Shown here one piece after another: positions 1 through 51,701 of a stretch of 51,701 nt of DNA. The stretch is from positions 1 through 51,701 of IMG/VR virus record IMGVR_UViG_3300037313_000136; one strand, given 5' to 3'. The notes under the pieces were generated by a model. It was not told the origin of the DNA. It saw only the letters and a program-made list of their open reading frames with translations, and did not search any database. A program made the translations under genes and the position numbers. This DNA is from a virus (taxonomy: Duplodnaviria; Caudoviricetes). How positions within the stretch are numbered: the stretch's first letter is position 1; the number at the start of each line of letters is the position of its first letter.

Positions 1-127
1 CTGCCTGACGATGCTGACTTGGTTGTGTTCACGGGGTCGTCACACGATATTGACCCTCAGTTGTATGGGCAGCCACCACACAAATCGGTTACTCTCAATC
101 CTGCGCTGGACAAGGCAAATCTATCAT
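1..127. repeat. 127-bp direct repeat of 51575-51701 (circular assembly overlap)
   Basis: Identical sequence at both ends; it falls inside one continuous ORF, and 127 is a common assembler k-mer. Confidence 0.95.
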
Positions 128-672: not shown

Positions 673-677
673 CTAAC

Positions 678-686
678 ATGTGTGGT
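678..686 (+). other. Original start (Met-Cys-Gly) of the class II amidotransferase, separated from its body by the HNH insertion
   Basis: AAAGGA RBS (663-668), then ATG TGT GGT; TGTGGT recurs at 1198-1203, where CGIVGIAG continues. Confidence 0.8.
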
Positions 687-1109: not shown

Positions 1110-2388
1110 GTTTGCACTCCTTTCTACTATCTATACACTATTATACCATATTTGTGCGGGATTGTCAAGTGCAAACACATCGCACTTCATTCTTGGCTGT
1201 GGTATTGTAGGAATTGCTGGTGACATCTTCTACAAAGAGGAGCGTACCATGCAGGCTTTGTTCTTGGCGGATTACCTTCGTGGTACCGACTCAACGGGTC
1301 TTGCGGCGGTAAGGAACAATGGTGATGTTAAGATAGCAAAACTAGCCAGCGACCCAATCACTTTGTTCCAAATGACCCAGTTTAAGAATGCTCTTAATGG
1401 CAACAACAGTAAGTTGTTCCTTGGCCATAACCGAGCAAGCACGTCAGGTAGTACAACCAACTACAACGCTCACCCTTATCAGTTTGGTCATATCGTAGGC
1501 GTTCAGAACGGAACGCTTGCGTATGGCGACCAGACAATGCTGGAAGAAATTCTTGATGAGAAGTACGAAGTTGATAGTCAGGCTTTGTTTGCTTGTATTG
1601 CCAAGATCGGTGTGAAAGACACCGTGAGTATGCTCAAGGAAGGTGCCACGTATGATCGTGGCGCTTGGGCATTGGTTTGGTATGACATGAAGGAAGATAC
1701 AATTAACTTCCTTCGTAACAAGCACCGTCCGATGTGGATGGCGTGGGATGAAGGCTTCAAGCGGCTGTTCTTCGCCTCACAGTGGAGGATGCTGGACTAC
1801 GCTAGTGACATGGCCTCTTCTCCGTATAAGTGGGAGATATACGAACGTAAGGAAGAACCCGGCAAGTTCTACAGGTTCTTCCAGCTTCCTGAGAACCAAC
1901 ACTGGAAGTTCAACCTAGATGAAATGAGAAAGGGCAGTAAGTCTAGGCCGAAGCCAATTGTTCGGGAAATCAAGGGAAGGGAGCCTGCACCGGCGGCAAA
2001 GAAGCCGGTGTACGACCCTTTTCCAGTTCGTGGCACTATCCAGACGACTCCTCAACCTTCCTCGACGACGACCTCCCACCTTGGTACTAACAGACGTGGT
2101 GAAAAGTTAATTCACTTCACAGCTACACCAGATGAGCCGTATGCCAATGTTATTGGTATGATGAGGTTCGCAGAACTCACCGGCATGTCTGGAAATGGAA
2201 CTCAAACGGGCTGTTCGTTCTGTTACGCAGATATTCCTTATGGTTCACCGGGGATTACTGTGTATGAGGAACAGGATACAATCTTGTGCAGACATTGTAG
2301 TGGTCACGGCCCCGGTGAGGAGCTACCTGCTGCCAAGGTGTATGTAAGTAGTAAAGACTTTGAAACTCTACAGAAGAAGGCTGCATAA
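1108..2388 (+). CDS. Class II (Ntn) glutamine amidotransferase; mature start Cys at 1198
   Basis: CGIVG, LRGTDSTG, LGHNRAST, NAHPY, GVQNGT and EVDSQ motifs; C-terminal CxxC/CxxC domain. Confidence 0.9.
   Translation: MFALLSTIYTLLYHICAGLSSANTSHFILGCGIVGIAGDIFYKEERTMQALFLADYLRGTDSTGLAAVRNNGDVKIAKLASDPITLFQMTQFKNALNGNNSKLFLGHNRASTSGSTTNYNAHPYQFGHIVGVQNGTLAYGDQTMLEEILDEKYEVDSQALFACIAKIGVKDTVSMLKEGATYDRGAWALVWYDMKEDTINFLRNKHRPMWMAWDEGFKRLFFASQWRMLDYASDMASSPYKWEIYERKEEPGKFYRFFQLPENQHWKFNLDEMRKGSKSRPKPIVREIKGREPAPAAKKPVYDPFPVRGTIQTTPQPSSTTTSHLGTNRRGEKLIHFTATPDEPYANVIGMMRFAELTGMSGNGTQTGCSFCYADIPYGSPGITVYEEQDTILCRHCSGHGPGEELPAAKVYVSSKDFETLQKKAA
1140..1168 (-). promoter_or_regulatory. Consensus sigma70 promoter for the HNH gene
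   Basis: TTGACA-atcccgcacaaatatgg(17)-TATAAT with extended -10 TG. Confidence 0.85.
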
Positions 2389-2390
2389 CA

Positions 2391-3488
2391 ATGCCAACGC
2401 TTTATAATCCTGAAGTCTCTGCTTTTGGGCAATACACACCCAATTTCATTGTTGGTAATCCTCAGCATATCGCTGAAATAATGCTGCATCCATACAATGA
2501 ATCTGCGCTTAATTCTTGGCGCGCTCTAGGGCTGTATCCTGATGTGATAGCCATTATAGATAACACCAACAAGGGTGAGGCGGCACAGGTGAAAATGGCT
2601 AAGAGAGCTAGGACTGTCAAAGAAAACAAACCCGGTAAAATCCTTGAAGGGTTTACGTTGGGAGCTGACCCGGAATTGTTCGTGGTTGATACCGATGGAG
2701 TACCGGTCTGCGCGGATATGATACCCGGCACCAAGGATGAACCTTACAAGGTAGAATTTGGTGCAGTTCAGCGTGACGGTTTCGCCGCTGAATACAATAT
2801 TGACCCCTGTTCCACATTTGAGGAGTGGAACCGCAACCACAAGGCGGTTCAGGGGCAGCTACAAGACATGTTGCCGAAGGGCTTTAAGCTGGTGGCAACC
2901 CCGGCAGTTCGCTTCTCCCCGGAAGTCTTTGATGCTGCCCCTGACATGGCAAAGGAGTTGGGTTGTCAGCCTGACTGGAATGCGTGGGAGGCTGCGCTCA
3001 ATCCTCCACCACGTTTGCCCGATGATCCTCGTCTTAGGTGTACTGGTGGCCACATTCACGCTGGATGGTTGCCGAAGGGCGAAGAGGGTTACGATGTACA
3101 CGACACTCAGCACATGATGAATTGTTTTGATCTGACCAAACAGTTTGATTGGTTCCTTGGTACTTGGTCACTCAAGCATGACAAGGACGTGGAGCGTCGT
3201 CGTCTCTACGGTAAGGCCGGTTCGTGCCGAATAAAACCTTATGGTGTTGAGTATAGGGTTCTATCCAGTTTTTGGGTACTCGAAAAAGAACTGAGACTTG
3301 AGGTGTGGAACCGAGCTTGTCTCGCCATTACCTGCATGTCGAAGTACTTCTTGCCCGAACAAATCTCACCGGGGTTTAGTGATATTCTCCGAAGCTCCAT
3401 CAACAATGGACATTTGGACAGTAGCATAACATCTAATGTTAAGTTCCCCGTTAGCACTCTAACCCCTCCATTTTCTATGGCCGCCTGA
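2391..3488 (+). CDS. phiEco32-like COOH-NH2 ligase type 2
   Basis: TLGADPELF, VQRDGFAAEYNIDP, LGCQPDWNAW, GGHIH, RRLYGKAG and YGVEYRVLS; an alternative start near 2594 is possible. Confidence 0.88.
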   Translation: MPTLYNPEVSAFGQYTPNFIVGNPQHIAEIMLHPYNESALNSWRALGLYPDVIAIIDNTNKGEAAQVKMAKRARTVKENKPGKILEGFTLGADPELFVVDTDGVPVCADMIPGTKDEPYKVEFGAVQRDGFAAEYNIDPCSTFEEWNRNHKAVQGQLQDMLPKGFKLVATPAVRFSPEVFDAAPDMAKELGCQPDWNAWEAALNPPPRLPDDPRLRCTGGHIHAGWLPKGEEGYDVHDTQHMMNCFDLTKQFDWFLGTWSLKHDKDVERRRLYGKAGSCRIKPYGVEYRVLSSFWVLEKELRLEVWNRACLAITCMSKYFLPEQISPGFSDILRSSINNGHLDSSITSNVKFPVSTLTPPFSMAA

Positions 3489-3495
3489 GGTTAAT

Positions 3496-4257
3496 ATGGA
3501 ATACAAGAATTTCTTCGAGAACCAGAAAGAAGCAGCGATGCGTCTTCAGCAAACTGTCGTCCTGTACGATGGTTCGCCTGTGGAGATTGTGTGTGTTGCC
3601 GATCATCCTGATGGGATACTCAGGGCTTACATCAGACCCACAGGATATACACCTGCCGAGTTTGATAGTATGCCGAAGCCTTCTTCGTCGCACATGGCGA
3701 ACGCCGCGTACACTTCTAGTTTGGCTACATACATGGACACGTTCATCCAAGATAATCCCGGTTGTGGTATTATTCGCAAACATCTGAACTCACCACTGTT
3801 CAACAAGTTCAGGCCGTTTGAACTTGGAATGTACTGGAACCCGCCACATGTATATTATGTGGAGAGACAGCCTAATCGCCGAGTGGAGCAGGGCCTAATC
3901 AAACCCATGATCGTAGCCACGAAGCTTACACCAATTCCTGAGAAGGGTGAGAACGTCAGTGGTGACGTTGACTTATTTGGTCCTGAGATGAAGCGGTGCA
4001 TCATTGGTGAGCATCCAAGTCCCAAGCGGTGTTTGGAAGCTATCCATGATGATAGGCTTGACTGTAAGGCCGCAGCATTTGATCGCCACTTCGCATTGGT
4101 TCGTGGTCCAATCGGAACTCTGTTCCTTGCATACAAGAACAATGTGATTGGTCAGTTACCCAATGGTGACTATGACAAGGTTAAGCTAGGAAAAGCCTAC
4201 ACCTATTGTAAAGAGGCAGTTGCCGATTTACATCTATTTAACAATATCATTAGCTAA
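3496..4257 (+). CDS. Hypothetical protein of the amidoligase cluster
   Basis: 253-aa ORF with GAGG RBS between the two ligase genes. Confidence 0.8.
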   Translation: MEYKNFFENQKEAAMRLQQTVVLYDGSPVEIVCVADHPDGILRAYIRPTGYTPAEFDSMPKPSSSHMANAAYTSSLATYMDTFIQDNPGCGIIRKHLNSPLFNKFRPFELGMYWNPPHVYYVERQPNRRVEQGLIKPMIVATKLTPIPEKGENVSGDVDLFGPEMKRCIIGEHPSPKRCLEAIHDDRLDCKAAAFDRHFALVRGPIGTLFLAYKNNVIGQLPNGDYDKVKLGKAYTYCKEAVADLHLFNNIIS

Positions 4258-4278
4258 GAAAGGACAAAGGTTGTTGAA

Positions 4279-5349
4279 ATGCGGGAACCATTCGTAGAAA
4301 AGGTTACAAGGCAGAAACCGGGTTTCAACGTTGGAGTTATTCTTGGTTCCAAGACGCCACAGAAGGGTAAAGTTGGAATTGAAATCGAGCTAGAGGGAAA
4401 GAATTTTCTCTATCACGAAAACGTTCCGGCTCCTTGGGTGTACAAGGAAGATGGGTCACTTCGCGGGGAAGAGAGTGCCGAGTACGTCTTGAAGAACCCC
4501 ATCGAGTTCAATGAGGTTGAGAAGGTTCTCAAAACCTTGTTTGACAAACTTGCCGAGAAGAAGGCAAAGTTTGACGACAGCAACAGGACAAGCATCCACG
4601 TACACCTGAACTGTCAGGAATTCTATCTCAACAGGCTCGCAGCTTTCATGGGTCTGTGGTTCTGCCTAGAGGAAATTCTGACCCAGTGGTGTGGTGAGCA
4701 TCGTGTTGGCAACCTGTTCTGCCTGAGGAGCCGCGATGCAACAGCAATCATCTCACAGTTACGGAAGTTTCTCAAGTCTGATGGCAAGTTCGAGCTATCA
4801 GACAATCTCCACTATGCTGGCCTTAACGCCAACGCACTACGCAAGTTTGGCTCGTTGGAAATCAGGACGATGCGGGGAGTATCCGATCCCGATGTAATCA
4901 AGGATTGGGTGGAAATACTTCAACGTCTGTATGAATATTCAGCTGAGTTCAATGATCCTCGCAATGTATGTAGCTTGTTCTCAGGCCACGGACCATTACA
5001 GTACTTCTATGAAGTTCTTGGTGACAAGGCTTCGTGTGTTCGGGCTGGTGTGAACTGGACCGATGAAGAAATCAGAGCAAGCATGTATCGTGGTATCCGT
5101 CTCGCTCAGGATATTTGCTATTGCCGAGATTGGGACTTGTATCGTCCTCAGAGTTTGAAGCCTGACCCATTCAAGCGAGATATGAAGAAGGTTGCCAAGA
5201 AGGTTATTGGGTTTGACTATGAAGATAACCCTAGTCCATTCTCTATGGAAGCATTTCAGCAATACATACAAGGAGCAACAGCAGGGACAGTATATGTTAG
5301 CGGGTCTGATCCTTGGAATAATAGTGTTTCTTTTGATTTACCAAACTAA
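4279..5349 (+). CDS. Putative amidoligase (COOH-NH2 ligase)
   Basis: GIEIELEG, EDGSLRG, EYVL, TSIHVHLN, YAGLN and GSLEIR. Confidence 0.88.
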   Translation: MREPFVEKVTRQKPGFNVGVILGSKTPQKGKVGIEIELEGKNFLYHENVPAPWVYKEDGSLRGEESAEYVLKNPIEFNEVEKVLKTLFDKLAEKKAKFDDSNRTSIHVHLNCQEFYLNRLAAFMGLWFCLEEILTQWCGEHRVGNLFCLRSRDATAIISQLRKFLKSDGKFELSDNLHYAGLNANALRKFGSLEIRTMRGVSDPDVIKDWVEILQRLYEYSAEFNDPRNVCSLFSGHGPLQYFYEVLGDKASCVRAGVNWTDEEIRASMYRGIRLAQDICYCRDWDLYRPQSLKPDPFKRDMKKVAKKVIGFDYEDNPSPFSMEAFQQYIQGATAGTVYVSGSDPWNNSVSFDLPN

Positions 5350-5364
5350 GAAGGAGAAGTAAAC

Positions 5365-6336
5365 GTGACCACAACTAAGTATTTTGTTTATCCGTACACC
5401 ACCATGTCTGCCAGTTCCATTGTTCTTGCTGAGGAACTGGATGCTAAACGCATCAAGCTGAACCACAGTAATTACCATCACAAGCCAGAGAATGTGATTG
5501 TGAACTGGGGTAACAGTGGGTGTCCGTATCCACAGGCACTTAATCCTGCTGATGCAATTTCGGATATTATCAACAAGGTGAAGTTCTTCCAGAAAACGGC
5601 AGGACTTGCTTGTGTTCCGAAGTTCGCCACGACCAAGGCACAGGCAGCCAATCTATCATTTCCGGTGGTGTGTCGTACGGATATTGTTGGAGCTGATGGG
5701 GAAGGCATTAAAATAGCTGAAACACTCGCTCAGTTGCCTTCTTGCAGCTTGTACACTGAGTATATGGACAAGACCAGTGAGTATCGTATTCACCTCGGGC
5801 GGCTGCCTAACGGTGAAGTGACGGTGATCGCTCGTCAGAAGAAGCACAAGTCTGCTGCATTCACTGGCGATCAGCGTATCTGGACGGGATCGGAAACGAA
5901 GCTTGAGTGGATTGACACGGCAGTTTCTCAGGTAGTGTACGCTGCCAAGGAAGTGTTCGCTAAGTTCCCCGGACTTACGTTCGGTGCTTTCGATATTGTT
6001 TACAACAACAGTACGGAGAAGGCCTATGTCCTTGAGATTAACTCGGCCCCGATGCTCACAGCAAAGACGGCTGAGGCGTATGCTACATTCTTCAAGAACT
6101 ACAAAGGAGCAGAAAGTCCGACTATGGAAACAATTGTTGCACCGCCGCAGAGTGAGACTGTTACTAGCAGTCCAACCCCGAACCCCGCTCCGGCAAGTTC
6201 GACGGGTCTGTATGGGTTTGTGAAGAACCAACTTGCTCAGGGCCACATCACCAAGGCTCAGCTTGAGCAGTACACTCCACCAATTACAGAGGAGATTTTG
6301 ATTGGCAACTACATCAACGCGATTACCGCAGCATAA
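5365..6336 (+). CDS. ATP-grasp peptide ligase (RimK/glutathione synthetase-like)
   Basis: IVNWG, FPVVCR, EYRIH, FGAFDIV and VLEINSAP. Confidence 0.88.
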   Translation: MTTTKYFVYPYTTMSASSIVLAEELDAKRIKLNHSNYHHKPENVIVNWGNSGCPYPQALNPADAISDIINKVKFFQKTAGLACVPKFATTKAQAANLSFPVVCRTDIVGADGEGIKIAETLAQLPSCSLYTEYMDKTSEYRIHLGRLPNGEVTVIARQKKHKSAAFTGDQRIWTGSETKLEWIDTAVSQVVYAAKEVFAKFPGLTFGAFDIVYNNSTEKAYVLEINSAPMLTAKTAEAYATFFKNYKGAESPTMETIVAPPQSETVTSSPTPNPAPASSTGLYGFVKNQLAQGHITKAQLEQYTPPITEEILIGNYINAITAA

Positions 6337-17675: not shown

Positions 17676-17874
17676 TGTTCATGGTAATGACCTTACCACA
17701 AAGAAACGTAGGCGTCAGATCAGCCAGATGAAAAAGGAAACCCGTCACGGCGATGTTCTATTTCGCCTGACGGTTGATATGCCTGAGGGAGTGGGTGTAG
17801 ATGAATTCAACCAGTTGATGGTTGAGTACTTTGGTATTGGTTATGAAGCCTTTAAACAGAAAGTGCGACTATGA
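17662..17874 (+). CDS. Hypothetical protein
   Basis: GAGG RBS and ATG 17662; ATGA coupling to the next gene. Confidence 0.65.
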   Translation: MQLVDVHGNDLTTKKRRRQISQMKKETRHGDVLFRLTVDMPEGVGVDEFNQLMVEYFGIGYEAFKQKVRL

Positions 17875-18197
17875 TGGGTCTTCCTAATCCTTACGTTCTT
17901 GCTGGCGGTGGCGTAGCTGTTTTGATGATTGGGGCTTCTATTTATATTCAGAGTACACTAATTCACAAGTGGCATGTTCAGTACGACAATGAAGTAATCG
18001 CCTTCAATCTGGAACACCAGAAAGTAGTGGATATGACTACTGAGCAAAACAACCAGACTGGTAAATCTGAACAGGCAGTTATTAAGGTTGTGCAGGGTCC
18101 ACGTGAAGTGCAATCTATCATCAAAGAAATAGAGGCTGCACCGGCAAAACCGTGTACAGCCCCAGTAGATTCTGACGAGGTGAAGAATGCGTTTTAA
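17871..18197 (+). CDS. Inner-membrane spanin (Rz-like)
   Basis: N-terminal TM, periplasmic helical region, C-terminal Cys; overlaps a lipoprotein gene. Confidence 0.7.
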   Translation: MMGLPNPYVLAGGGVAVLMIGASIYIQSTLIHKWHVQYDNEVIAFNLEHQKVVDMTTEQNNQTGKSEQAVIKVVQGPREVQSIIKEIEAAPAKPCTAPVDSDEVKNAF

Positions 18198-26850: not shown

Positions 26851-27261
26851 TTAGAACTTAATCCTCATTTCAGTTAGGTTCTGCTTGATACCATTCTCGT
26901 AATATAGGACCTTATCGAAACCAGTTTTCCTAAATCCAAAGGACTCAGCGAACTTAATCTCTGGTTCCATTTCAGGTGGTATCCATGTATCGAGATGATG
27001 CCAACCTTTTTCTGTAAGTGCAACTAGAAGACAATCAAACACTTCTCTCAGGTGCTTTAGCCGAGCTGCATCAATTTCAATCTCATTATCAATATGGAAT
27101 GACAATTGACCACATACATCAATCAGATATAGTCGCAATCCATCTTCTTCGTAAATCGTATTACGGAATGGGCGAGCCACTGGCTGCGATGGACCATCCA
27201 ACGAGGTCGAAGTTTTTTCCTGCTTCACTGCTGCTGTATCTGAATTGGATTGATTTTCCAT
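26851..27261 (-). CDS. GNAT-like virion assembly protein (gp13-like position)
   Basis: KFAESFGF motif; lies between tail tube B and internal proteins. Confidence 0.55.
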   Translation of the reverse strand: MENQSNSDTAAVKQEKTSTSLDGPSQPVARPFRNTIYEEDGLRLYLIDVCGQLSFHIDNEIEIDAARLKHLREVFDCLLVALTEKGWHHLDTWIPPEMEPEIKFAESFGFRKTGFDKVLYYENGIKQNLTEMRIKF

Positions 27262-28654
27262 TGCCTCTAACCTTATTCTTAGTCACAACCATACTGAAAC
27301 CGGTATCTGCTGTATCCATCAGCAATCTGCCCGGACGATAAACTTCAGTAGGAATTGTCCATTTGTTACTGCCTGAGGAACTTGACCACTCCCACTTAAC
27401 TTGCATGTTACAAGAACTCGGATAATCTGGTTGGCCGCTAACGATTGCTGAGTCCGTTCTAGTTAGATACGTGAAAAGATAAGTAATGTTCTTTTTACGC
27501 ATAGCATCTGAGAACAGCTCATATCCTGTTTCTATGTAAGAGTCATATGTAACGCCTACATTATCAGCAGAATACCAATCAACAAATTGACCGCTACGTG
27601 ACTGAGCAATGCGAACAGAAGTTCCGTGACTTACAATGTACTCAATCTGACTTGGCATTATATCAGTAGGTATCGTGTAGCTATTATTCCTATTAGCGAT
27701 ATAAATACCTTTAACAACACCGTTAGAACTGGCTGAAAACTTCCACGGGTAAAAGGCCCCTAGAGCTGCATCGAAAATCAGAACTTTATCATAGTTGGTA
27801 GAACTAGCATTTTCTCTATAGAGCCAGTAAATACAATTGCGCTTAGGATCAAATACACCTTTAACATCTTCACGAGCATCATCAGAGATTTTATTATAGT
27901 AGGATTGGATGGTCTGCTCAGTAATGTTTAGCTTATCAGTAGTGGCTTGACTGCCTGAAATAGGGCCATACAAACCAAGATTGCTTTGACTAGCTGCCAT
28001 GATCCCCACATCACTCCACCAGAAAATAGCTTTATCTGTTTCAACTACTGAGTTGGGAGATTGACAACCAATTGGTGAAATCTTATTAACTGAGTAATCA
28101 AGGGCGGAAAAACCATTCTGTCCACCTGTTACAGCCCATACTCCGTTATGAGCAAAAACAATGACCCCGCCGCCATAAGCCGCCAACTTAACAATGTGAC
28201 TTGCCTCAGGGATCGGAATGTAACCACCGTCGGTAGCAACTAGATCAGAAACTTCTTCACTAGTAGGATCAGCGTCCATATAGCAGTTAGCTGCTTGTGT
28301 GGGGTCGAGAAGAACCTGACTAAACAGAACATTGCTTCCTTGCCCATACCAAACTCGACCAGAGAAGAAAGTTATACTTTTGGGACGTTCATTAATTGTT
28401 TCAACTGGCAGGCTAGGGATACTACTAATCAAACTTCTATCTTTATTGAAGAAGTCAAGAATGTAGTGCCCACGAGGGGCATGCATATTACCCATGTACA
28501 ACTTCTGAAGGGTTTCTGGCATAAAATCACCAACCTTCAGATTACGAGTGCTGTCGTCAATCTGAGAACGAGCAAGCCACCACTGTTGGTTATTACCGGG
28601 GTAACGACCAATTATATTAAAGTATTGAATTACAGGATCAGGACTATTCGCCAT
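27161..28654 (-). CDS. Tail tubular protein B / nozzle, C-terminal part
   Basis: FFSGRVWY, DPTSEEVSDLVATDGG, NGVW and KNKVRGNGKSIQFRY; beta-rich. Confidence 0.8.
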   Translation of the reverse strand: MANSPDPVIQYFNIIGRYPGNNQQWWLARSQIDDSTRNLKVGDFMPETLQKLYMGNMHAPRGHYILDFFNKDRSLISSIPSLPVETINERPKSITFFSGRVWYGQGSNVLFSQVLLDPTQAANCYMDADPTSEEVSDLVATDGGYIPIPEASHIVKLAAYGGGVIVFAHNGVWAVTGGQNGFSALDYSVNKISPIGCQSPNSVVETDKAIFWWSDVGIMAASQSNLGLYGPISGSQATTDKLNITEQTIQSYYNKISDDAREDVKGVFDPKRNCIYWLYRENASSTNYDKVLIFDAALGAFYPWKFSASSNGVVKGIYIANRNNSYTIPTDIMPSQIEYIVSHGTSVRIAQSRSGQFVDWYSADNVGVTYDSYIETGYELFSDAMRKKNITYLFTYLTRTDSAIVSGQPDYPSSCNMQVKWEWSSSSGSNKWTIPTEVYRPGRLLMDTADTGFSMVVTKNKVRGNGKSIQFRYSSSEAGKNFDLVGWSIAASGSPIP

Positions 28655-29415
28655 TATGGAAAGTTATCCGCAGTTTCACCAGTGGGATCATAATATTTAC
28701 CACCGCCACCGGGACCTGTTCCTGAACCAGCAGGAGGGGTGCCAGTATAAGTGGTGGTTGGAGTTCCATCCACTACACCAAGAGGACCGGGTTGAACCCA
28801 CCCCTGATTTCGAAGATTGTAGTAATGCTCATTGCTCAAAGTATCTGGTTGAGCCTCGTTGTTGAGATTATCAATCACACCAACAAAATCCCGAATTTTT
28901 AGAATCAATCTAATTATGCTTACATTATCTGTATCAGCATCATACTGAATTAGAATAGGGTCAATCACAGGAGAAGCTACAAACAGATAACCCTTTCCTG
29001 ATGCCATTTGCACCGGGTTGTTATCTACATCTGTAGTTGTAGCAAAAGGAGCTACATATGTACTAAGATCAACAGTGAAAGATTTAGGGCTGCCCGTTAT
29101 AGGAACAGCGTCTAAATCAAAGAAGTGCAGTGTTCGTTTTACTTGCATTACTAGGAAATTCACATCGGCATCATTACCGACACTCTTCCAAGCAAATTCA
29201 GAAATAAACTTTGTATCATCAAGATCAGAAAGAGTTGCAGCAACACTAGAAGGTTCGTAATCTAATCCAAGACGACGACTGCGACTGCCTTTAACTTTAA
29301 TTACAGTATTAAGCTCATCAATCGAAGCATTCTCAGGGTAAGTGAGAGGGCCTGCCTCAGTTATGAGGCCCTTAATGAAGCTCTGATAAAGCTTATTCTG
29401 TACTGGTCTTGGCAC
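28654..29415 (-). CDS. Tail tubular protein B / nozzle, N-terminal part
   Basis: FIKGLITEA, PENASIDELN, RSRRLG, IRDF and YNLRNQGW. Confidence 0.78.
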   Translation of the reverse strand: MPRPVQNKLYQSFIKGLITEAGPLTYPENASIDELNTVIKVKGSRSRRLGLDYEPSSVAATLSDLDDTKFISEFAWKSVGNDADVNFLVMQVKRTLHFFDLDAVPITGSPKSFTVDLSTYVAPFATTTDVDNNPVQMASGKGYLFVASPVIDPILIQYDADTDNVSIIRLILKIRDFVGVIDNLNNEAQPDTLSNEHYYNLRNQGWVQPGPLGVVDGTPTTTYTGTPPAGSGTGPGGGGKYYDPTGETADNFP

Positions 29416-37099: not shown

Positions 37100-37384
37100 T
37101 TATTCCCACGGATGAAGTTTGTGAGCTTTCTTTGTACGCTTGTAAGAACGGTTCTGTCTCTTGGTGCCCATTTTGAAGTTACTCAACTTGTCATCAAGAG
37201 CATTACCGTTCTTGTGCATAACATCTTTACCGTCGCCCTTGCGCGCTTTCCCCGCCTTAATCATCATGCGGCGGGCTTTATTACGACTGGCTCGTTTCTT
37301 CTTCTGAAGAGGTTTCGAGTTGTATTTAGCCTGAGCACGTTGACGAGCAAGAGTGTTCTTTTCGCTATTAGGTCCTGTAGCCAT
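37100..37384 (-). CDS. Small basic HNH-like protein next to terminase
   Basis: KGDGKDVMHKNGN...SN...NRS. Confidence 0.65.
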   Translation of the reverse strand: MATGPNSEKNTLARQRAQAKYNSKPLQKKKRASRNKARRMMIKAGKARKGDGKDVMHKNGNALDDKLSNFKMGTKRQNRSYKRTKKAHKLHPWE

Positions 37385-43245: not shown

Positions 43246-43274
43246 ATTATAACATATTTAAATCTAAATGTCAA
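43246..43274 (-). promoter_or_regulatory. Consensus sigma70 promoter heading the structural arm
   Basis: TTGACA-tttagatttaaatatgt(17)-TATAAT. Confidence 0.88.
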
Positions 43275-43363: not shown

Positions 43364-43392
43364 TTGACAAACCCTTCAGTATATGTTATAAT
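43364..43392 (+). promoter_or_regulatory. Consensus sigma70 promoter, divergent from 43246-43274
   Basis: TTGACA-aacccttcagtatatgt(17)-TATAAT. Confidence 0.85.
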
Positions 43393-44022: not shown

Positions 44023-44301
44023 ATGACTAGGCATCAGCGGCGCAAGGCTGCGCGTGCCAGAAAGGATGCTAAAGGCGAGTTGCTGAACAGTCGTGCACTG
44101 CACGTTCTACAGCAAGCGAAGCTGAAGGCGAACTTGATGGAACGCAAAGCCAAGCGAAGTCCGAAAGGGCTAGGCAACCGTGGCATTTACTCGGGTATGG
44201 GTTTGTATCCTGCGCCGGGATATGGTACGGGAGCGTTCAAAGAGAAGCCATTGAGTGAGCGGCAATGCCGTGAGCACAGGGCACTTGACAAACAACGCTA
44301 G
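44023..44301 (+). CDS. First early protein, basic, with N-terminal arginine-rich motif
   Basis: MTRHQRRKAARARK. Confidence 0.7.
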   Translation: MTRHQRRKAARARKDAKGELLNSRALHVLQQAKLKANLMERKAKRSPKGLGNRGIYSGMGLYPAPGYGTGAFKEKPLSERQCREHRALDKQR

Positions 44302-44304
44302 GTG

Positions 44305-44855
44305 CATTACCTAGTCACACATAACTATCGCAAACGGTACGCCGCAAACGATAGTGCGGATTAAGGCAAGCCAGTCTCTTGTCTAGGTAGCTGGAACGGC
44401 GGCCCTCACCTTGAATGTCACAAGGTAGAGAAAGCATCCTCTGTCCCGTAGGGATATGATGGTAAGCTATGCGCTCTAGGCGCGGGCTGTTAGTCACGCT
44501 AAAGCGGTGACGCACAATCTATCATCGTGCGTTGCTGTGGCGGCTAGGCTGGTTGTAGGCGACACGCAAGTGTTGTCCCGGATTATTCCGAACCGGCGAC
44601 AAGATTAACGGTGACTGTGCAAATAACCTAGGGTTAGTGTATTGAGTTACACGTATGGTCGCGGTACGCCCGTTCATTGCGTTGTAAGTGATGGACGCGA
44701 GCTAGAAAGCTCCTCGGTAATGGCAATCCTTTGTGGTTGCGGCAACAACCTAACAAGGTTGTGATGGCAAGCGCCGAAGTTGTGTATGAGGCACAAGCCT
44801 AGGCCAACAGGTATTAATGAGCTAGCGGACGCGCTACGGGAGTTGCCCGCTTGCT
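44305..44855 (+). ncRNA. Candidate large structured ncRNA (about 550 nt)
   Basis: No + strand ORF in the track; more than a dozen consecutive helices with G-U pairs on the + strand. Confidence 0.65.
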
Positions 44856-44879
44856 TTCACAGCTTTGGAGGGAAAGACA

Positions 44880-45134
44880 ATGCTGGTACTTATCGGACAA
44901 ACTGAAGAATTGAATTGTTGGGCCGATCAGCCACACGCCTATAACGTGTACTATCGGAACGAACAAAGCGGGAGATTGTGCCGCTATTGCATAACTCCAA
45001 TGTCTCGTGAACTTGCTGAGGAATATGCTCGCAAGTTTAATGAGCGATACTTGGATATACACGGACGCGGGAAAGCTTTTCCCAATGGCCGTGGCTATTA
45101 TCCGTACAGTAAAGCGTGGGTTGATTTCCACTAA
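44880..45134 (+). CDS. Hypothetical early protein
   Basis: GGAGG RBS and ATG 44880. Confidence 0.7.
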   Translation: MLVLIGQTEELNCWADQPHAYNVYYRNEQSGRLCRYCITPMSRELAEEYARKFNERYLDIHGRGKAFPNGRGYYPYSKAWVDFH

Positions 45135-45147
45135 GAGGATTAAGAAA

Positions 45148-45360
45148 ATGGTTATGCTCCGTAGTCCTAGCACGGCAGGCGAACGTAAGTTCGATGTGTA
45201 CGTGCGGGAAGTCGGCGGATACGTCCACAAGGTTGGAACAGTGTTCGCCAACAACAAGATACAAGCAGATACTAAGGTCCGCATGATGTACGGGCGAACG
45301 CTAACTGATGGGCGCGTCGCTTATGCGGTGGACCCGATGCCAATGGGAGCGAACGCATGA
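45148..45360 (+). CDS. Hypothetical early protein
   Basis: GAGGA RBS and ATG 45148. Confidence 0.65.
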   Translation: MVMLRSPSTAGERKFDVYVREVGGYVHKVGTVFANNKIQADTKVRMMYGRTLTDGRVAYAVDPMPMGANA

Positions 45361-45467
45361 GGAAACATGATGCACTTCAATCGCGCTTGTGGCGCGAGCA
45401 GATACAGCGAGACTTGCAAGGTTATCGGCATCCGCTGAAAAATAATCGAAGCCAAGAACAAAACTAA
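45357..45467 (+). CDS. Small early peptide (36 aa)
   Basis: GGAG RBS and ATGA coupling. Confidence 0.5.
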   Translation: MRKHDALQSRLWREQIQRDLQGYRHPLKNNRSQEQN

Positions 45468-45618
45468 TCTATCATCGTCGTTGCACACACGTTTGCAATA
45501 GGCACACAGAGAAGCTGGTGCATGATATGACTTTGCATTGACGCCTCTGTGTGTCTTCTCCAAGCGTGTGCTTGGCCGTGGACAACCTACGGGATTACCA
45601 CAAAAGGAGAAGTGAATT

Positions 45619-46404
45619 ATGGCACGTAGAGCAGCAGGATTACTTGTCGGTTTGACTGCTATTTCAGCAGGCATCCGCGAATTGAAGGGCGTCATTAACA
45701 ACGTGTACGACCGTGCACAGCTTGTTGGTGTGTCCATCATCAACCATGACCTGAATGGCGGCAATGACGGCTCACCTACTGGTGACTGTTCAAAGGCCAA
45801 GGATTTGGTCAATGTGCTCAAGACGCAGGAAGATAAGCGTAACATGGTCGCTTGGCTTGCGTATTTCGGCAACATCGGCGTGAAGATGGAAAACGGTACT
45901 GCTACCGAGGTCCGTCACTTTCAGGCCGACAACAAGCGTTACCGTCAGCCTGACTTGGACGGCGCGAAGGCTAACAAATGGTATGAACCCTATCTGCCCA
46001 ACGGCGAGAAGGCTCATTGGTTTGAAGGCCCGGCCAAGCCGCTCTATACGCCGGGAACCCTTGGCGACATTGGCGACAATGTTATCACGTTTGCTGAGCG
46101 GTTCCTTGGAACTGATCGACGCATCGGCCAGCTTTATGACAAGGTTGATGCAGGCAACGGTGACAAGGTTAATCGGTACAATCTCAGTGATGAGGAAATC
46201 CAGCAGGCTGAGGCGCTGTTCAATGGCGTCCGCAAGTTTGGCTTGATGCTCATGGCTCGGGAACGTGCCGAGGAATACACGGCTGAAGTCGTGAAGCTCA
46301 ATGAGTTTCTCGATCAGGCAACCAAGGTTATCAACGATGTGAATAACATCGGAGAGAACCCAACGGAAACCACGACTGAAGATGTTCAGGAAATGGTTGC
46401 CTGA
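45619..46404 (+). CDS. Hypothetical early protein (261 aa)
   Basis: AAGGAG RBS; long ORF. Confidence 0.8.
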   Translation: MARRAAGLLVGLTAISAGIRELKGVINNVYDRAQLVGVSIINHDLNGGNDGSPTGDCSKAKDLVNVLKTQEDKRNMVAWLAYFGNIGVKMENGTATEVRHFQADNKRYRQPDLDGAKANKWYEPYLPNGEKAHWFEGPAKPLYTPGTLGDIGDNVITFAERFLGTDRRIGQLYDKVDAGNGDKVNRYNLSDEEIQQAEALFNGVRKFGLMLMARERAEEYTAEVVKLNEFLDQATKVINDVNNIGENPTETTTEDVQEMVA

Positions 46405-46485
46405 ATAATCCCCTGTATCTAGCTTTCATCCCTCCGTTGGCTAGATGCTCGGCGCTGCTCCGACGCTAGAAAATATCGGGCACTT

Positions 46486-46665
46486 AATTTATATAGACTG
46501 TCGCAATCGGGTTGATTGGGATAACGACATACAACTTATAATGACCATTGATGGCCTAGCCTAGAGTATGGTCGGAGTTGGACAGACGCAATCTAATTTG
46601 TTGGTTGCTACCAGCTGTCTAGTTATCTAATCCTTTCAATGGGATATGGGCAGTCTTTATAAGTT
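46486..46665 (+). ncRNA. Candidate structured RNA (about 180 nt, closed multibranch)
   Basis: AATTTATA-T-AGACTGTC / GGCAGTCT-T-TATAAGTT closing stem; nested GATTGGGATAAC/GTTATCTAATC. Confidence 0.5.
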
Positions 46666-46678
46666 GGTGAGAATTATT

Positions 46679-46765
46679 ATGGTTGTATATGCCATATACG
46701 CCTATGTAATAATTGTTGTTGTAGTCGCTCTTGTATGGAGTAAACACAATGGCAAAGACAAGTGA
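46679..46765 (+). CDS. Small single-pass membrane peptide (28 aa)
   Basis: GGTGAG RBS; MVVYAIYAYVIIVVVVALVWSKHNGKDK. Confidence 0.55.
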   Translation: MVVYAIYAYVIIVVVVALVWSKHNGKDK

Positions 46766-46994
46766 CAAACCAATCTATCATCGGCGCATGTCAGCGGCGC
46801 AGTTAAGGCGTCGTTGGCGTAATAAGCGAACACATCAGCAGCTGTATGACGCCAGCGATTGGCTCCGGTCTGTTGAAGTTGACGCCACTGGATTTGCGAG
46901 AGTTTGGATTGGCGTCGGTCTGCAAATAGCGGCGTCACACTTGGAAGAACTAGCCAATGAGATATTGGTGGAGGATATAATCAATGACCAATAA
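46749..46994 (+). CDS. Hypothetical early protein
   Basis: GGAG RBS and ATG 46749. Confidence 0.65.
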   Translation: MAKTSDKPIYHRRMSAAQLRRRWRNKRTHQQLYDASDWLRSVEVDATGFARVWIGVGLQIAASHLEELANEILVEDIINDQ

Positions 46995-47160
46995 ACCACT
47001 TCACATCATATTTGATGGTCCGCCCGGACCTGAGGCTGGTCGTTTTGTAGAGTGTGAAACTCCCGATGGTCAGAGCATAAACGCAGGAGAATGGCGTGAG
47101 AGGGATGATGGTTATTGGGAATTAATCATTCCTGACCGCATTTCGATGGACGATAATTAA
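46984..47160 (+). CDS. Hypothetical early protein (58 aa)
   Basis: GGAGG RBS; FDGPPGPEAGRFVECE. Confidence 0.7.
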   Translation: MTNKPLHIIFDGPPGPEAGRFVECETPDGQSINAGEWRERDDGYWELIIPDRISMDDN

Positions 47161-47190
47161 GTTACTCAACGGCATAGTAGGAGAACGAAC

Positions 47191-47790
47191 ATGCCAAACA
47201 GTAAGCGCGAAACCAAGCCCAAGCTTGGTATTAAAGCCGATAAGCCTGCAAAGACGCGGGTTGAGGAAATGTTCGGAGGCGTTGGCTACGTCAGTCAAGA
47301 CGGGCCAGTGATGAAGGTGGATGCGGAAATCCCACTGCCTGAACACGCTGACCCTGAACCTGACCAACCATCTGTACGAGATATTAAGGATCGGGTGGAA
47401 GGATTGTTTCGCTCTATCGGTACGGCGGCCTTGCCCGATACAGTCTTTCCATCCGGTACTCGCAACAATGGTCCGCAAGCTGCTGAGTTTGTTGTGGCCG
47501 AACAGCTTAAGAAGCTGGCTGAGAAGCGGTACGAAGAAGCCAAGAAAAATGGCAAGGACGCTGGTTGTTTTGGTGATGAAACCAAATACGTTGCTGGCGA
47601 GACTGTTGAGGTTTATCGTACGCCCAACTTCACATTCAGTGTTCAGCGCAATCAGGACAGCAACATGATTGACCGTAAGGCAGTTGAAGACTTGCTGCGT
47701 GATATTGCGCCAACCAAATGGCAGGAATTGCTGAAGCGTTGTGAGAAGCCGAAGGCAGGAGCCACACGGTTTATTGTTGCGCTTCGGTAA
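47191..47790 (+). CDS. Hypothetical early protein
   Basis: AGGAG RBS; 199 aa. Confidence 0.8.
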   Translation: MPNSKRETKPKLGIKADKPAKTRVEEMFGGVGYVSQDGPVMKVDAEIPLPEHADPEPDQPSVRDIKDRVEGLFRSIGTAALPDTVFPSGTRNNGPQAAEFVVAEQLKKLAEKRYEEAKKNGKDAGCFGDETKYVAGETVEVYRTPNFTFSVQRNQDSNMIDRKAVEDLLRDIAPTKWQELLKRCEKPKAGATRFIVALR

Positions 47791-47829
47791 ACGAGGTCAC
47801 TCACTAACGGGTGACACAAAGGAGAGAGT

Positions 47830-48015
47830 ATGAAGCAGACCATTTGGTACGGCTCGACACCGCAGGGTGTTACCTTCGCCAAGTCGAAGAACCAGCTTGA
47901 GCAGTCAAGCCAGCTCTCCGGCAACATTGGAAGCTTCACTGTGGACGGTGAAATCACTGGGTTGAACTACGTGGACAACACGCAGTCATCTCAGTCATCG
48001 ACACAGCACGCTTAA
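47830..48015 (+). CDS. Hypothetical early protein
   Basis: AAGGAG RBS. Confidence 0.65.
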   Translation: MKQTIWYGSTPQGVTFAKSKNQLEQSSQLSGNIGSFTVDGEITGLNYVDNTQSSQSSTQHA

Positions 48016-48155
48016 TCCAACGAGACTTGACAGTTTTGTTTAAACTGTCCGTTGAGCCAACTGGAAACGGGGCGCTCTCACATACGGTACGTCAAGCCGT
48101 ATTCATTCCCCAGCGGGGGCTGGGTTAGCTTACTTTGAGCGGGAGTAGTGGCATC

Positions 48156-48314
48156 ATGGAACAGGCACAACTGTTTGTAGCAGCCAAGAAGAATGGCAAC
48201 ATCTTGTTGAACGTCGGTGGTTGTGGTTTTCCACAGAGTATTAGTCCCAAGGATTTAATTAATATCTGCGTACGCCGAGTTGATACTCGGAATAGAAGTC
48301 GAGACACGGCCTAA
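48156..48314 (+). CDS. Small hypothetical protein (52 aa)
   Basis: GGGAG upstream of ATG. Confidence 0.4.
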   Translation: MEQAQLFVAAKKNGNILLNVGGCGFPQSISPKDLINICVRRVDTRNRSRDTA

Positions 48315-48587
48315 GAAGCCGGTCTAACCAATCGAGAACAAAGCATAAATGAGATTGGGTAAACTCCGCATCGTTCTGATGCGTTGAGTATTTTCCCAAA
48401 CAAGAATGAATTTAGTTTCGAGCCGGTTTTCGGAACCGGCCTGTCGGCAACCAACAGAGTGGTTGCAAACTCAGACCTGAGCTAGCGGGTTGCTGAGAGG
48501 CCAGTGGAAATCTGGCCAACCAATCTATCATCGTCGGCGGCGCATACGTGCGTCCAGCAATTCTAACAGCAGTAGTGAGAAGCAACA

Positions 48588-48938
48588 ATGCACGTCCATG
48601 ACAAGATATTTGTGTACGGAACTCTTAAGCAAGGGTTCGGTGCCAACAGCATTCTACAAGGTAGAGCGGAGTTTATAACTGATGATCGGATTGAAGGATC
48701 GTTGTATAATTTGGGAGCCTTTCCGGGGTATAAAACCTCGGGTTCCGGCATGGTCGCTGGTGAAGTCTATGAGATCACCGACGAGAACCTTCCTGCCATG
48801 CTTGACAACTATGAGAACTACCCAAGTTTGTACACAAGAGTAAAGATGCACACCGAAAAGGGATACAACGCTTGGGTGTATGTAATCAATGAGAACATGT
48901 ACGAGAAGAACCTAATTCAAGAGGGAGTTTGGGCATAA
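48588..48938 (+). CDS. Gamma-glutamylcyclotransferase (AIG2-like)
   Basis: IFVYGTLKQG, GAFPG, GEVYEI, LDNYE, YTR and AWVY. Confidence 0.9.
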   Translation: MHVHDKIFVYGTLKQGFGANSILQGRAEFITDDRIEGSLYNLGAFPGYKTSGSGMVAGEVYEITDENLPAMLDNYENYPSLYTRVKMHTEKGYNAWVYVINENMYEKNLIQEGVWA

Positions 48939-51315: not shown

Positions 51316-51701
51316 AGAGATAAACAAGAAGATTGAAGATAACAGGCAGATGCAACTCCCAACACAGCTACCAGCCATTTCTCACAATGATACTGCGCCA
51401 CTAGACCTCCTTGGTCGTAAGAAAAGTGACTACGCACAAACCCGAAGGGTGACAGTTTTGGAAGATAGTTCAATACCATATCCAGAGCTTTGGTTGACTG
51501 TGTACATTCACGGACCTGAGGCTGGTTTCAACTTCAACAAGATGTTTGCTAGGGCCAAGTGCTACAAGGCCAATCTGCCTGACGATGCTGACTTGGTTGT
51601 GTTCACGGGGTCGTCACACGATATTGACCCTCAGTTGTATGGGCAGCCACCACACAAATCGGTTACTCTCAATCCTGCGCTGGACAAGGCAAATCTATCA
51701 T
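51218..51701 (+). CDS. Class I glutamine amidotransferase / peptidase C26-like protein, 5' part (continues at position 128)
   Basis: Open frame from ATG 51218 into the terminal overlap, in frame with 1-672; ATG 51350 is an alternative start. Confidence 0.8.
   Translation, partial: MSTKGKRKIRTANKRAKKTTTKGLSGLIPLSSEEINKKIEDNRQMQLPTQLPAISHNDTAPLDLLGRKKSDYAQTRRVTVLEDSSIPYPELWLTVYIHGPEAGFNFNKMFARAKCYKANLPDDADLVVFTGSSHDIDPQLYGQPPHKSVTLNPALDKANLS

Follow-up and report, generated by a model that had tools for sequence, protein, structure and literature searches.

A one-stranded word in the early arm

The window, the whole stretch of 51,701 nt that we analysed, is a circular assembly of a soil-phage genome: its first 127 nt are identical to its last 127 nt, an assembly overlap, and the unique genome measures 51,574 bp. 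A perfect sigma-70 promoter (43364-43392) forms the head of the + strand arm and is the single strong consensus promoter of the 26-kb early/replication arm. Along this arm the word AATCTATCAT recurs. Exact matching placed it at 118, 5650, 18112, 44516, 45466, 46772, 48522 and 51692 of the window, eight times on the + strand and never on the - strand. Since the window ends share the same 127 nt, positions 118 and 51692 are one site, and the genome therefore holds seven unique copies. Four of them extend to an exact 12-mer, AATCTATCATCG. These sites, and a gene discussed further below, are as follows.

44516..44527, + strand: copy 1, AATCTATCATCG; noncoding, with the + strand sigma-70 promoter lying 1.1 kb (2.2% of the genome) upstream
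45466..45477, + strand: copy 2, AATCTATCATCG; noncoding, 143 nt upstream of a 261-aa gene at 45619
46772..46783, + strand: copy 3, AATCTATCATCG; codons 8-12 of a small Arg-rich ORF (46749-46994)
48522..48533, + strand: copy 4, AATCTATCATCG; 56 nt upstream of a gamma-glutamyl cyclotransferase-like gene at 48588
118..127 (= 51692..51701, the last 10 bases of the window), + strand: copy 5; inside a gene running from 51218 to 672
5650..5659, + strand: copy 6; inside a RimK-like ATP-grasp gene (5365-6336), at relative position 0.29
18112..18121, + strand: copy 7; in the last + strand gene (17871-18197)
37100..37384, - strand: predicted 94-aa HNH endonuclease, the candidate nickase; directly upstream, in transcription order, of the terminase genes

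Copy 5 exactly closes the assembly overlap, and some 90 nt separate copy 7 from the point where the lysis/structural arm converges on this one. Small Arg-rich early proteins are encoded by the ORF that holds copy 3 and by another at 44023-44301.

Shuffling the genome gave an expectation of 0.11 copies of AATCTATCAT (sd 0.35, maximum 2), and none of 100 shuffles reached eight. The k-mer count on both strands ranked the word first among all 10-mers of the genome (7 on +, 0 on -), which bears out the sequence-only reading of a + strand repeat expected about 0.1 times by chance. No halo of degenerate copies surrounds it, whether for the 10-mer at up to two mismatches (40 matches against 51.1 expected) or for the 12-mer at up to three (40 against 43.2). 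The coding copies are read in three frames, as N-L-S (118 and 5650), Q-S-I-I (18112) and P-I-Y-H-R (46772). As that reading had argued from these frames, ATCTATCA[T/C] is a nucleic-acid signal and not a protein signal.

The copies crowd at the start of the early/replication arm and become sparser farther along. The gaps between consecutive copies widen as had been described (950, 1306, 1750, 3170, 5532 and 12462 nt), and, with distance from the early promoter expressed as a share of the genome, the seven copies lie at 2.2, 4.0, 6.6, 9.9, 16.1, 26.8 and 51.0%. The gradient had been taken to run from the genome start; the gradient itself stands, whereas its origin is the promoter at 43364-43392, the first base of the window being arbitrary because the assembly is circular.

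Conservation and placement in related phages

Relatives retain the word and its polarity. In 79 related loci (1.02 Mb) we counted 63 forward and 0 reverse copies, and the last T proved replaceable by C (10 forward, 0 reverse); across 12 whole relatives, ATCTATCA[T/C] occurs 97 times forward and 3 times in reverse, with about 4.6 expected per strand. In the late arm the motif is enriched on neither strand, and the three T-type copies found there occupy the opposite DNA strand. All seven sites are syntenic in one relative, G001, though the flanks of the four early copies do not align; copy 2, for example, corresponds to G001 12580 and G002 1069, and copy 7 to G001 36316 and G002 23839. At one ATP-grasp site the motif is present in 11 of 23 orthologs: all 11 that encode Ser-Ile there do so with A-TCT-ATC-A(T/C), and the remaining 12 carry other residues. 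Selection on the motif thus acts at the nucleotide level. The structural module of the phage is Zobellviridae-like, and its portal shares 48-51% identity with the portals of the phages SIO1, P12053L and PA11; a portal protein search of the genome contigs found no relative.

Copies favour gene starts, 27.7% of them lying within 30 nt of a predicted start codon against 8.9% of random positions, an enrichment of about threefold. Many stand 16-60 nt upstream of the start codon, ahead of the Shine-Dalgarno sequence, and at least 12, placed past the Shine-Dalgarno sequence, either overlap the ATG or come to within 3 nt of it; further copies that are conserved among relatives sit deep in mid-gene. 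A logo of 95 sites contains neither a -35 nor any other upstream element.

Display of the repeat in RNA loops, also proposed from the sequence, did not hold in general. The motif is mostly unpaired in predicted folds; folding downstream of 52 early-region sites from 10 genomes gave no common RNA structure (mean z -0.29 against shuffles), and the three-way junction predicted at copy 4 is no better than chance (z -0.46). Copy 1 does form the 11-nt loop of a 12-bp stem (44504-44515/44527-44538), which G001 and G002 retain through compensatory changes in 4 of 10 pairs, and is the only site with a conserved surrounding stem; against shuffles this hairpin has a modest advantage (z -1.74, 11 of 200 folding equally well). 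RNA-library contigs (assembled contigs of public runs) pass uninterrupted through this copy, which falls in the stretch where their coverage is deepest. A nut-like boxA/boxB arrangement was considered and rejected, there being no conserved hairpin at a fixed distance across the 52 sites: only site 1 has a conserved stem and folding is not general.

Some assembly features coincide with the motif. Strain variants among the contigs split exactly at its borders, after 44525 and 5 nt before 45466. Of five circular assemblies that carry the motif, four close at a k-mer that includes a copy or has one no more than 7 nt away (p ~2e-6), a pattern compatible with either a physical discontinuity or a junction made by recombination there. 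The ends of linear contigs show no clear enrichment near the motif.

A small HNH protein accompanies the motif

The 94-aa protein encoded beside the terminase genes matches Pfam HNH_3 with an E value of 3.3e-4 and 20.7 bits, under the 24.8-bit cut-off. HNH_3 is nevertheless matched by 10 of the 11 members of its family (best E 6.4e-6); the protein also matches PHROG HNH families and has the HNH_3 family set in common with 27 of its 30 nearest Atlas clusters. Among 11 homologs H57, N69 and N78 never vary and N61 hardly does, and D54-V55-x-H57 is likewise invariant or nearly so. Profile match and conserved His...Asn...Asn catalytic core together identify it as a predicted HNH_3 endonuclease. Members measure 84-107 aa and have a basic, conserved N-terminal half; we found no known DNA-binding module in the family and, by sequence search, no solved structural relative of the 94-aa protein.

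Of 12 motif-bearing genomes 11 encode this family, against none of six motif-free ones (HMM search, 0/6), a co-occurrence that amounts to only about two independent contrasts on the primase tree, where the motif label needs at least two changes. Among ORFs of at least 50 aa from five query genomes it is the only family that separates motif-bearing from motif-free genomes, when a family must also not be missing from the motif-bearing G003 and G019. Additional records with the HNH gene (G018, G019, G026) all carry the motif; those lacking both are G016 and G022 (0 copies), and G025 lacks the gene and has one copy, on the strand opposite the primase gene. Five motif-bearing records show no HNH gene (G017, G020, G021, G011, G023), all of them incomplete (47-89%). 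The family is larger than the group that carries the motif: IMG/VR holds at least 543 relatives, and the motif is nearly absent from the 80 HNH loci kept (821 kb; 2 copies on the HNH strand, 12 opposite), many of which are short, and whose protein matches share 48-75% identity with the query. Small HNH genes next to a terminase commonly serve as helpers in packaging.

HNH nicking endonucleases include homing enzymes of the I-HmuI type and terminase-associated HNH proteins such as HK97 gp74. The family resembles them in its HNH_3-type beta-beta-alpha-metal motif and in the position of its gene next to the terminase. It differs in measuring only 84-107 aa, and its nicking activity and specificity are putative.

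Resemblance to phages with localized nicks

Judged by analogy, the closest match to the motif is the nick-associated motif of the Pseudomonas phages tf and LUZ24 (TACT/RTGMC). Localized single-strand interruptions were shown experimentally in the Pseudomonas phages tf and Rembedalsseter, in phiKMV-like phages and in T5. For tf, PMC3517423 gives 14 copies of TACT/RTGMC, all of them on one strand and 11 in the early half (counts that we recomputed), with similar positions in LUZ24, PaP3 and MR299-2. In 61 relatives of Rembedalsseter the motif is described as one-stranded and denser toward one end; it is frequently found at CDS starts and for the most part sits on the coding strand (PMC11780129).

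The likeness extends to detail. Like the tf/Rembedalsseter/LUZ24/PaP3 motif (WACTRTGAC), ours is an exact 9-nt one-strand word with roughly 7-14 copies per 45-52 kb and no degenerate or off-strand copies, packed most closely in the early (left) half, with gaps that widen and positions common to relatives, and its copies overlap start and stop codons and lie in genes, mostly on the coding strand. Among the tf nicks, sci1, sci4 and sci11 fall across start codons, as do many copies here; sci8 lies in an ATP-grasp gene at relative position 0.31, compared with 0.29 for copy 6, and sci12 is near the end of the left arm, where copy 7 lies as well. Both phages are podoviruses with two convergent arms headed by consensus sigma-70 promoters; they have in common the left-arm genes for COOH-NH2 ligase, amidoligase, GATase, ATP-grasp and AIG2-like proteins and T7-like replication genes including primase/helicase and PolA. 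The words differ, with five of nine letters common in register between TACTATGAC (LUZ24) and ATCTATCAT. The present phage also departs from the tf group in its Zobellviridae-like structural module and its lack of a late-arm excess, and its nicks are putative, those of tf demonstrated.

T5 and phiKMV-like phages offer a looser parallel: their nicks are likewise site-specific, on one strand and uneven toward one end, but the phages are unrelated and so are the consensus sequences (R/GCGCRGG; CGACxxxxxCCTA/CTCCGG), and the T5 word, unlike this motif, is also present on the un-nicked strand. As for the enzymes, the nicking genes of T5 map to the late region and the tf nickase is termed only 'putative' (PMC3517423, in the parts cited). 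An HMM search of tf returned no homolog of the 94-aa protein, so the two nicking systems may be analogous only.

Weighing the interpretations

We favour, with a probability of about 0.55, the view that ATCTATCA(T/C) marks recognition sites for phage-encoded, strand-specific nicking, with the HNH protein as the candidate nickase. Several observations pull the other way. The HNH match of the window protein is below the Pfam curated cut-off, small HNH genes near terminases are common, and the HNH loci from IMG/VR mostly lack the motif; tf is without an HNH homolog, five incomplete motif-bearing records show none, and motif-bearing and motif-free genomes differ by only about two independent events. 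In addition, the late arm is unenriched on either strand, unlike tf, linear contig ends are not clearly enriched near the motif, and the start-codon enrichment would also fit a function in the expression of genes.

A transcription or RNA signal is the main rival to the nick reading. The motif could be, though we think it unlikely, a phage-specific transcription signal: a middle promoter that the host RNA polymerase reads with the help of an unrecognised phage factor, or a non-template ops-like or sigma-pause-like element loading an antiterminator onto polymerases that come from the promoter at 43364-43392. With one strong consensus promoter in a 26-kb arm, internal promoters or antitermination are plausible, and a polar, sense-strand word that includes TAnnnT, is confined to the early/replication arm, is densest among small genes and often precedes a Shine-Dalgarno sequence and start codon by 16-60 nt would suit either. 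T7 promoters show the same kind of statistics: T7-type promoters are the most over-represented polar word, co-oriented with genes and denser in the early and middle regions, as this motif is in its podovirus genome. Unlike them, it spans only 9-10 bp, lies inside ribosome-binding sites and deep in genes, and comes without a phage RNA polymerase or sigma factor that we could find: none is encoded among the 48 ORFs scanned, the PA11 sigma factor has no homolog in this genome, and the 1585-aa virion protein has no DxDxD motif and no Pfam or PDB match. The missing upstream element in the logo and the exchange of the last T, the would-be -7 position, for C (10 forward, 0 reverse) also speak against a promoter. 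At the 12 or more copies at the ATG or in the SD-ATG spacer, a start 6-8 nt downstream would decapitate the gene, leaving no room for a leader and ribosome-binding site. Conserved copies occur in mid-gene and at the arm end (18112), RNA-library contigs cross the copy at 44516, and there is no reason why a promoter should come and go with an HNH nuclease.

Still less probable is an element read in early and middle mRNAs, such as the operator of a RegA-like repressor or a site of cleavage or protection by an RNA-binding protein or nuclease. Exact recognition of 9-10 nt of single-stranded RNA is unusual in phages, the early proteins yielded no RNA-binding domain, no common structure surrounds the 52 sites, and selection also acts on mid-gene copies and on copies 150-450 nt from any start. 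What speaks for such an element is the restriction to the sense strand, a mostly unpaired motif, the conserved stem and deep RNA-library contig coverage at site 1, the small Arg-rich early proteins (44023-44301, 46749-46994), and the threefold enrichment within 30 nt of start codons, often in the SD-ATG spacer or the first 10 codons. Noncoding space in genomes as compact as these occurs almost only at gene starts, however, so this enrichment may simply reflect where a 10-mer is tolerated, and proven DNA nick motifs carry the same start bias (PMC11780129).

It seems very improbable that a host machine reads the motif as a polar DNA signal, whether as a Chi-like site recognised by RecBCD/AddAB or as a word that orients a translocase. 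Strict polarity, a density that peaks at the end that probably enters the cell ahead of the rest, and the hint of recombination in variants and closure points at the motif would agree with such a signal; known Chi sites, however, measure 5-8 nt, shorter than this 9-10-nt motif, the late arm is enriched on neither strand, and the motif is gained or lost with a phage HNH gene among phages with common replication genes. As a short polar signal with one working orientation it does resemble both lambda nut (boxA-boxB) and Chi; it differs from nut in having no conserved hairpin after it and many copies per transcription unit, and from Chi in being too long and restricted to one arm. The sequence-only reading, which had offered a nut-like site or a polar, Chi-like DNA signal, is partly supported: the evidence favours the direction of a polar DNA signal, the absence of a conserved hairpin beside the motif speaks against nut, and a Chi-like role is unlikely for a site of 9-10 nt that keeps to one arm.

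Under the nick reading, the 94-aa HNH endonuclease, alone or together with terminase, would nick the + strand at each motif copy late in infection. Packaged DNA would then carry seven nicks, every one of them in the early/replication arm and on its coding (non-template) strand; these nicks would be sealed after injection. We infer here nicking itself, the HNH protein as the nicking enzyme and the cut position in the motif. Deliberate, site-specific single-strand nicks are an old puzzle in phage biology; if this reading is true, the polar word would be the address for the nicks and the small HNH gene the candidate maker.

Distribution of the motif in the genome

The first 127 nt of the window are identical to its last 127 nt, which marks the assembly as circular; this complete phage record therefore represents a unique genome of 51,574 bp in which coordinate 1 is arbitrary. 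Its genes form two convergent arms, headed by two divergent, outward-facing promoters with about 90 nt between them.

Layout of the two arms
43246-43274, - strand: sigma-70 promoter, perfect 12-of-12, TG-extended, heading the late arm
43364-43392, + strand: sigma-70 promoter, perfect 12-of-12, TG-extended, heading the early arm, with an A-rich tract upstream
~44.0 kb, over the junction, to 18.2 kb, + strand: small early genes; a glutamine-amidotransferase / COOH-NH2-ligase / amidoligase / ATP-grasp / gamma-glutamyl-cyclotransferase cluster; T7-like replication genes (primase/helicase, PolA, gp2.5-like SSB, exonuclease, endonuclease I); ribonucleotide reductase
43.2 kb down to 18.2 kb, - strand: tail fibres, small HNH gene, terminase, portal, scaffold, capsid, tail, internal virion proteins, endolysin

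The most frequent 10-mer in this genome is AATCTATCAT, with seven unique copies (44516, 45466, 46772, 48522, 118 (=51692), 5650 and 18112), all on the + strand, where 0.11 are expected; the sequence-only reading had located every one of them correctly. No halo of near-copies was found. The distances of the seven copies from the + strand promoter are 2.2, 4.0, 6.6, 9.9, 16.1, 26.8 and 51.0% of the genome, and the convergent junction of the arms is ~90 nt from the last copy. The other 10-mers that exceed expectation in the window have scattered positions.

Among cultured phages, portal and primase place the window closest to Zobellviridae and relatives (SIO1, P12053L, PA11 and ICP2), at a protein identity of only 40-51%; the cultured phage collection gave no DNA match to the window, and PA11, whose portal puts it in the same family, lacks both the motif and any obvious equivalent. 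The phage DNA is present in soil and rhizosphere runs, at full length in the DNA runs X1-X6. A search of genome contigs with the portal protein, aimed at the host, gave nothing, and a tRNA scan and Rfam on the window gave no relevant result. Two adjacent - strand ORFs (27161-28654 and 28654-29415) match positions 1-212 and 221-551 of a single 769-position PHROG 'tail appendage' profile, and represent either one gene split in two or a form of this tail protein encoded by two genes.

Conservation of the motif in relatives

In G001, a related genome of ~70% nucleotide identity, a copy is found at 7/7 syntenic places, one of them as GATCTATCAT, and blastn fails to align window and G001 on either side of the four early copies. 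We surveyed 79 loci around primase homologs (1.02 Mb, primase-oriented, one duplicate locus dropped). AATCTATCAT occurs there 63 times forward and never in reverse, in 38 of the 79 loci, and ATCTATCAT 89 times forward and never in reverse; the first letter may be A, G or C, and the last T or C. Across 12 whole or near-whole genomes, ATCTATCA[T/C] was counted 97 times forward and 3 times in reverse. The head of the early arm is the densest part in all genomes, with one copy per 0.4-1.5 kb, and copies become sparser further on. The motif is real, conserved and statistically striking.

Copies occupy three reading frames as well as noncoding DNA. In a loop of the ATP-grasp protein, the motif is present in 11 of the 23 orthologs found, and all 11 encode Ser-Ile with identical codons, A-TCT-ATC-A(T/C), whereas the 12 orthologs that do not carry it have different residues at that loop. 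This argues that the DNA word dictates the protein and not the reverse; selection on the motif, as read from these alignments, is at the nucleotide level.

Resemblance to the tf/LUZ24 nick motif

Packaged phage DNA with site-specific nicks has been known since T5, and the 'nicked phage genome' is a puzzle 50 years old. In their passages on nicking, two papers on Pseudomonas phages give the purpose of the nicks as unknown and call the tf-type nickase merely 'putative' (PMC3517423, PMC11780129). The passages on tf describe 14 experimentally mapped nicks, every one inside TACT/RTGMC, with 14 copies of the motif on the top strand, none on the bottom strand and 11 of the 14 in the early left half, at positions resembling those in LUZ24, PaP3 and MR299-2 (PMC3517423); our recount also gave 14 top and 0 bottom. 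For Rembedalsseter and 60 relatives, the corresponding passages report a one-strand excess of the tf-type motif, with copies crowded toward one end (PMC11780129).

Like the window, tf is a podovirus genome of two convergent arms, with sigma-70 promoters at the arm heads and the same left-arm genes. Its nick sites sci1, sci4 and sci11 overlap start codons, sci8 has a relative position of 0.31 in the ATP-grasp gene (0.29 for the window copy in that gene), and sci12 lies near the left-arm end, as does the copy at 18112. The LUZ24 word TACTATGAC agrees with ATCTATCAT at 5/9 positions, which is weak evidence alone, and the structural module of this soil/rhizosphere phage group is unlike that of tf. 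From these parallels with tf and Rembedalsseter, AATCTATCAT appears to behave, at the sequence level, like a proven nick motif. The best-supported reading, at a probability of about 0.55, is that the word marks putative sites of strand-specific nicking, of the type seen in tf and LUZ24, and that the candidate nickase is a small HNH endonuclease. On that reading both the motif sequence and the phage group, which is large and uncultured, are new.

The gene set common to the window (1-6336 and 48588-48938), tf, LUZ24 and PA11 comprises peptidase C26/GATase, class-II GATase, COOH-NH2 ligase, amidoligase, RimK-like ATP-grasp and gamma-glutamyl cyclotransferase, and suggests that a gamma-glutamyl peptide or modification pathway is conserved.

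Breakpoints at the motif

In RNA-run contigs, a co-occurring strain variant keeps the motif and switches sequence directly after its last base (44525/44592), and another diverges up to 5 nt before the copy at 45466 (45342/45461). The closure k-mer of circular motif-bearing assemblies holds a copy, or sits within 7 nt of one, in 4/5 cases (chance p ~2e-6), and the final base of the window (51701) is the last base of the motif. Assemblers break loops at graph junctions; the closure points would be an indirect physical hint, for which a pile-up of read ends at nicks or strain mosaics switching at the motif would each suffice. Linear fragments were not convincing, with 4 of 50 ends within 150 nt of a motif against 2.4 expected. 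Because the strain variants switch at or within 5 nt of the motif borders and assemblies close on the motif, its sites may be recombination junctions.

Alternative readings

According to the sequence-only reading, the motif is displayed in RNA loops. This is true of the copy at 44516, an 11-nt loop on a 12-bp stem (z -1.74) that is retained in two relatives with compensatory changes at 4/10 pairs, as counted from only three sequences. It does not extend to the other three early sites, which have no significant structure, and a downstream hairpin or nut-like arrangement was rejected, the 50 nt 3' of 52 early sites from 10 genomes folding no better than shuffles (mean z -0.29). We regard an element acting at the RNA level as improbable. 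A transcription signal is a doubtful reading, although somewhat less so. Copies are found between the Shine-Dalgarno sequence and the ATG (the AT of which is included in the motif), 1-60 nt upstream of the Shine-Dalgarno sequence, within the first ten codons, mid-gene, and 150-450 nt away from any gene; by our own crude gene calls, 27.7% of 83 sites are at most 30 nt from a predicted start codon, against 8.9% of random positions. A sigma-70 reading of TATCAT was rejected, the -35 element being absent and the final T variable, and none of the 48 ORFs scanned encodes an RNA polymerase or sigma factor. A Chi-like signal of the host is highly unlikely; in the late arms the word is at chance-level copy numbers on both strands.

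A virion RNA polymerase in the 1585-aa internal protein is unsupported: the protein has no DxDxD motif, no Pfam match and no PDB match by sequence or profile, and in the Atlas it has LPD38/39 or unnamed virion proteins as neighbours. Among the matches listed, judged by title and abstract, full-text searches for the 9-mer with 'phage' and for Zobellviridae promoter motifs gave no paper naming the motif; the papers of the first search are unrelated, and those of the second appear so.

The RNA data are contigs from four rhizosphere metatranscriptome runs, in which starts, ends and strand are not readable and uncovered parts are uninformative. They cover the early region patchily and are deepest over noncoding 44344-44765, passing through the motif at 44516. 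The surrounding 570 nt (44302-44870) have no convincing ORF, are partly conserved in two related genomes (G001, G002), hold the first copy in its conserved stem-loop and match nothing in Rfam; they may be a stable noncoding RNA. Two small early proteins (44023-44301 and 46749-46994), with no family match, have N-terminal stretches rich in arginine that resemble the arginine-rich motifs of RNA-binding proteins, and in relatives similar small basic ORFs directly follow motif copies.

A candidate nickase

Six relatives with the same replication genes (G006, G012-G016) contain zero motif copies. We took ORFs of at least 50 aa in five query genomes and screened them against 12 genomes with the motif and 6 without it, and one family scored 11/12 and 0/6.

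37100-37384, - strand: gene of the 94-aa family member in the window

Zobellviridae-like structural genes scored 9/12 and 0/6, being absent from motif-bearing G003, G019 and G017. The 94-aa protein matches Pfam HNH_3 at E 3.3e-4, under the curated cut-off, and 10/11 of its homologs match it too (best E 6.4e-6); PHROG matches are to HNH families, Atlas neighbours are HNH, the His and Asn core is invariant, and the N-terminal half is basic and strongly conserved. By these several lines, it is a predicted HNH endonuclease.

At maximum sensitivity, an HMM found no HNH homolog in the six motif-free genomes, tf or PA11, nor in motif-bearing G017 (89% complete). Among further records, G018, G019 and G026 have the gene and several forward copies each, and G024 has the gene cut off at a contig end and a single forward copy. 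The gene is absent from G016 and G022, both motif-free, and from G025, whose single copy lies on the opposite strand to its primase gene, and was not found in four motif-bearing records, all incomplete (47-66%). On the primase tree the motif label requires at least two changes, with G016 nested beside motif-bearing G009.

Two other determinants were rejected. A link to the structural module at first fitted 9 motif-bearing and 7 other genomes, but G019 (99% complete; motif 7 forward, 0 reverse) and G017 have no window-type portal, while the positive control worked; endonuclease I was found in 3/5 motif-free genomes. Compared with the window, G003, G019, G006 and G012-G016 are strongly mosaic: they have the replication and amidoligase arm in common (primase 55-76% identical), their structural module is unrelated and the portal homolog is absent.

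With at least 543 relatives in IMG/VR, the HNH family is a broad one, and this motif is missing from most of the 80 HNH loci kept. Small HNH genes adjoining terminases are known packaging helpers. Other HNH-bearing phage contigs have their own dispersed one-strand 9-12-mers, in 5-7 copies 0.2-5 kb apart, which could be promoters or the motif's equivalents in these lineages:

L176, 2611-6073: one-strand word
L189, 414-13255: one-strand word
L212, 313-5048: one-strand word

Tentatively, the HNH protein could be a site-specific nickase whose family marks many nicked genomes that have gone unrecognised, with a different polar word in each lineage. Nicks would occur in the non-template strand only, within the arm that is first to enter and to be transcribed, and, as the divergence of variants exactly at motif borders suggests, might double as recombination junctions, shuffling early genes among strains.

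Significance

These results add a new motif in a large uncultured group of soil and rhizosphere phages, and evidence of nucleotide-level selection on a word, strong enough to mould protein sequence. Were the motif a transcription signal instead, it would reveal an unrecognised promoter class in RNA-polymerase-less podoviruses. For the nick-site reading, natural gain and loss among mosaic relatives singles out one small enzyme as a testable candidate. Should the HNH protein nick AATCTATCAT, it would combine compact size with a nicking site of 9-10 bp and would give a handle on the purpose of the nicks, knock-outs and in-vitro nicking being feasible; as a nickase, it would be the missing enzyme of the nicked phage genome.
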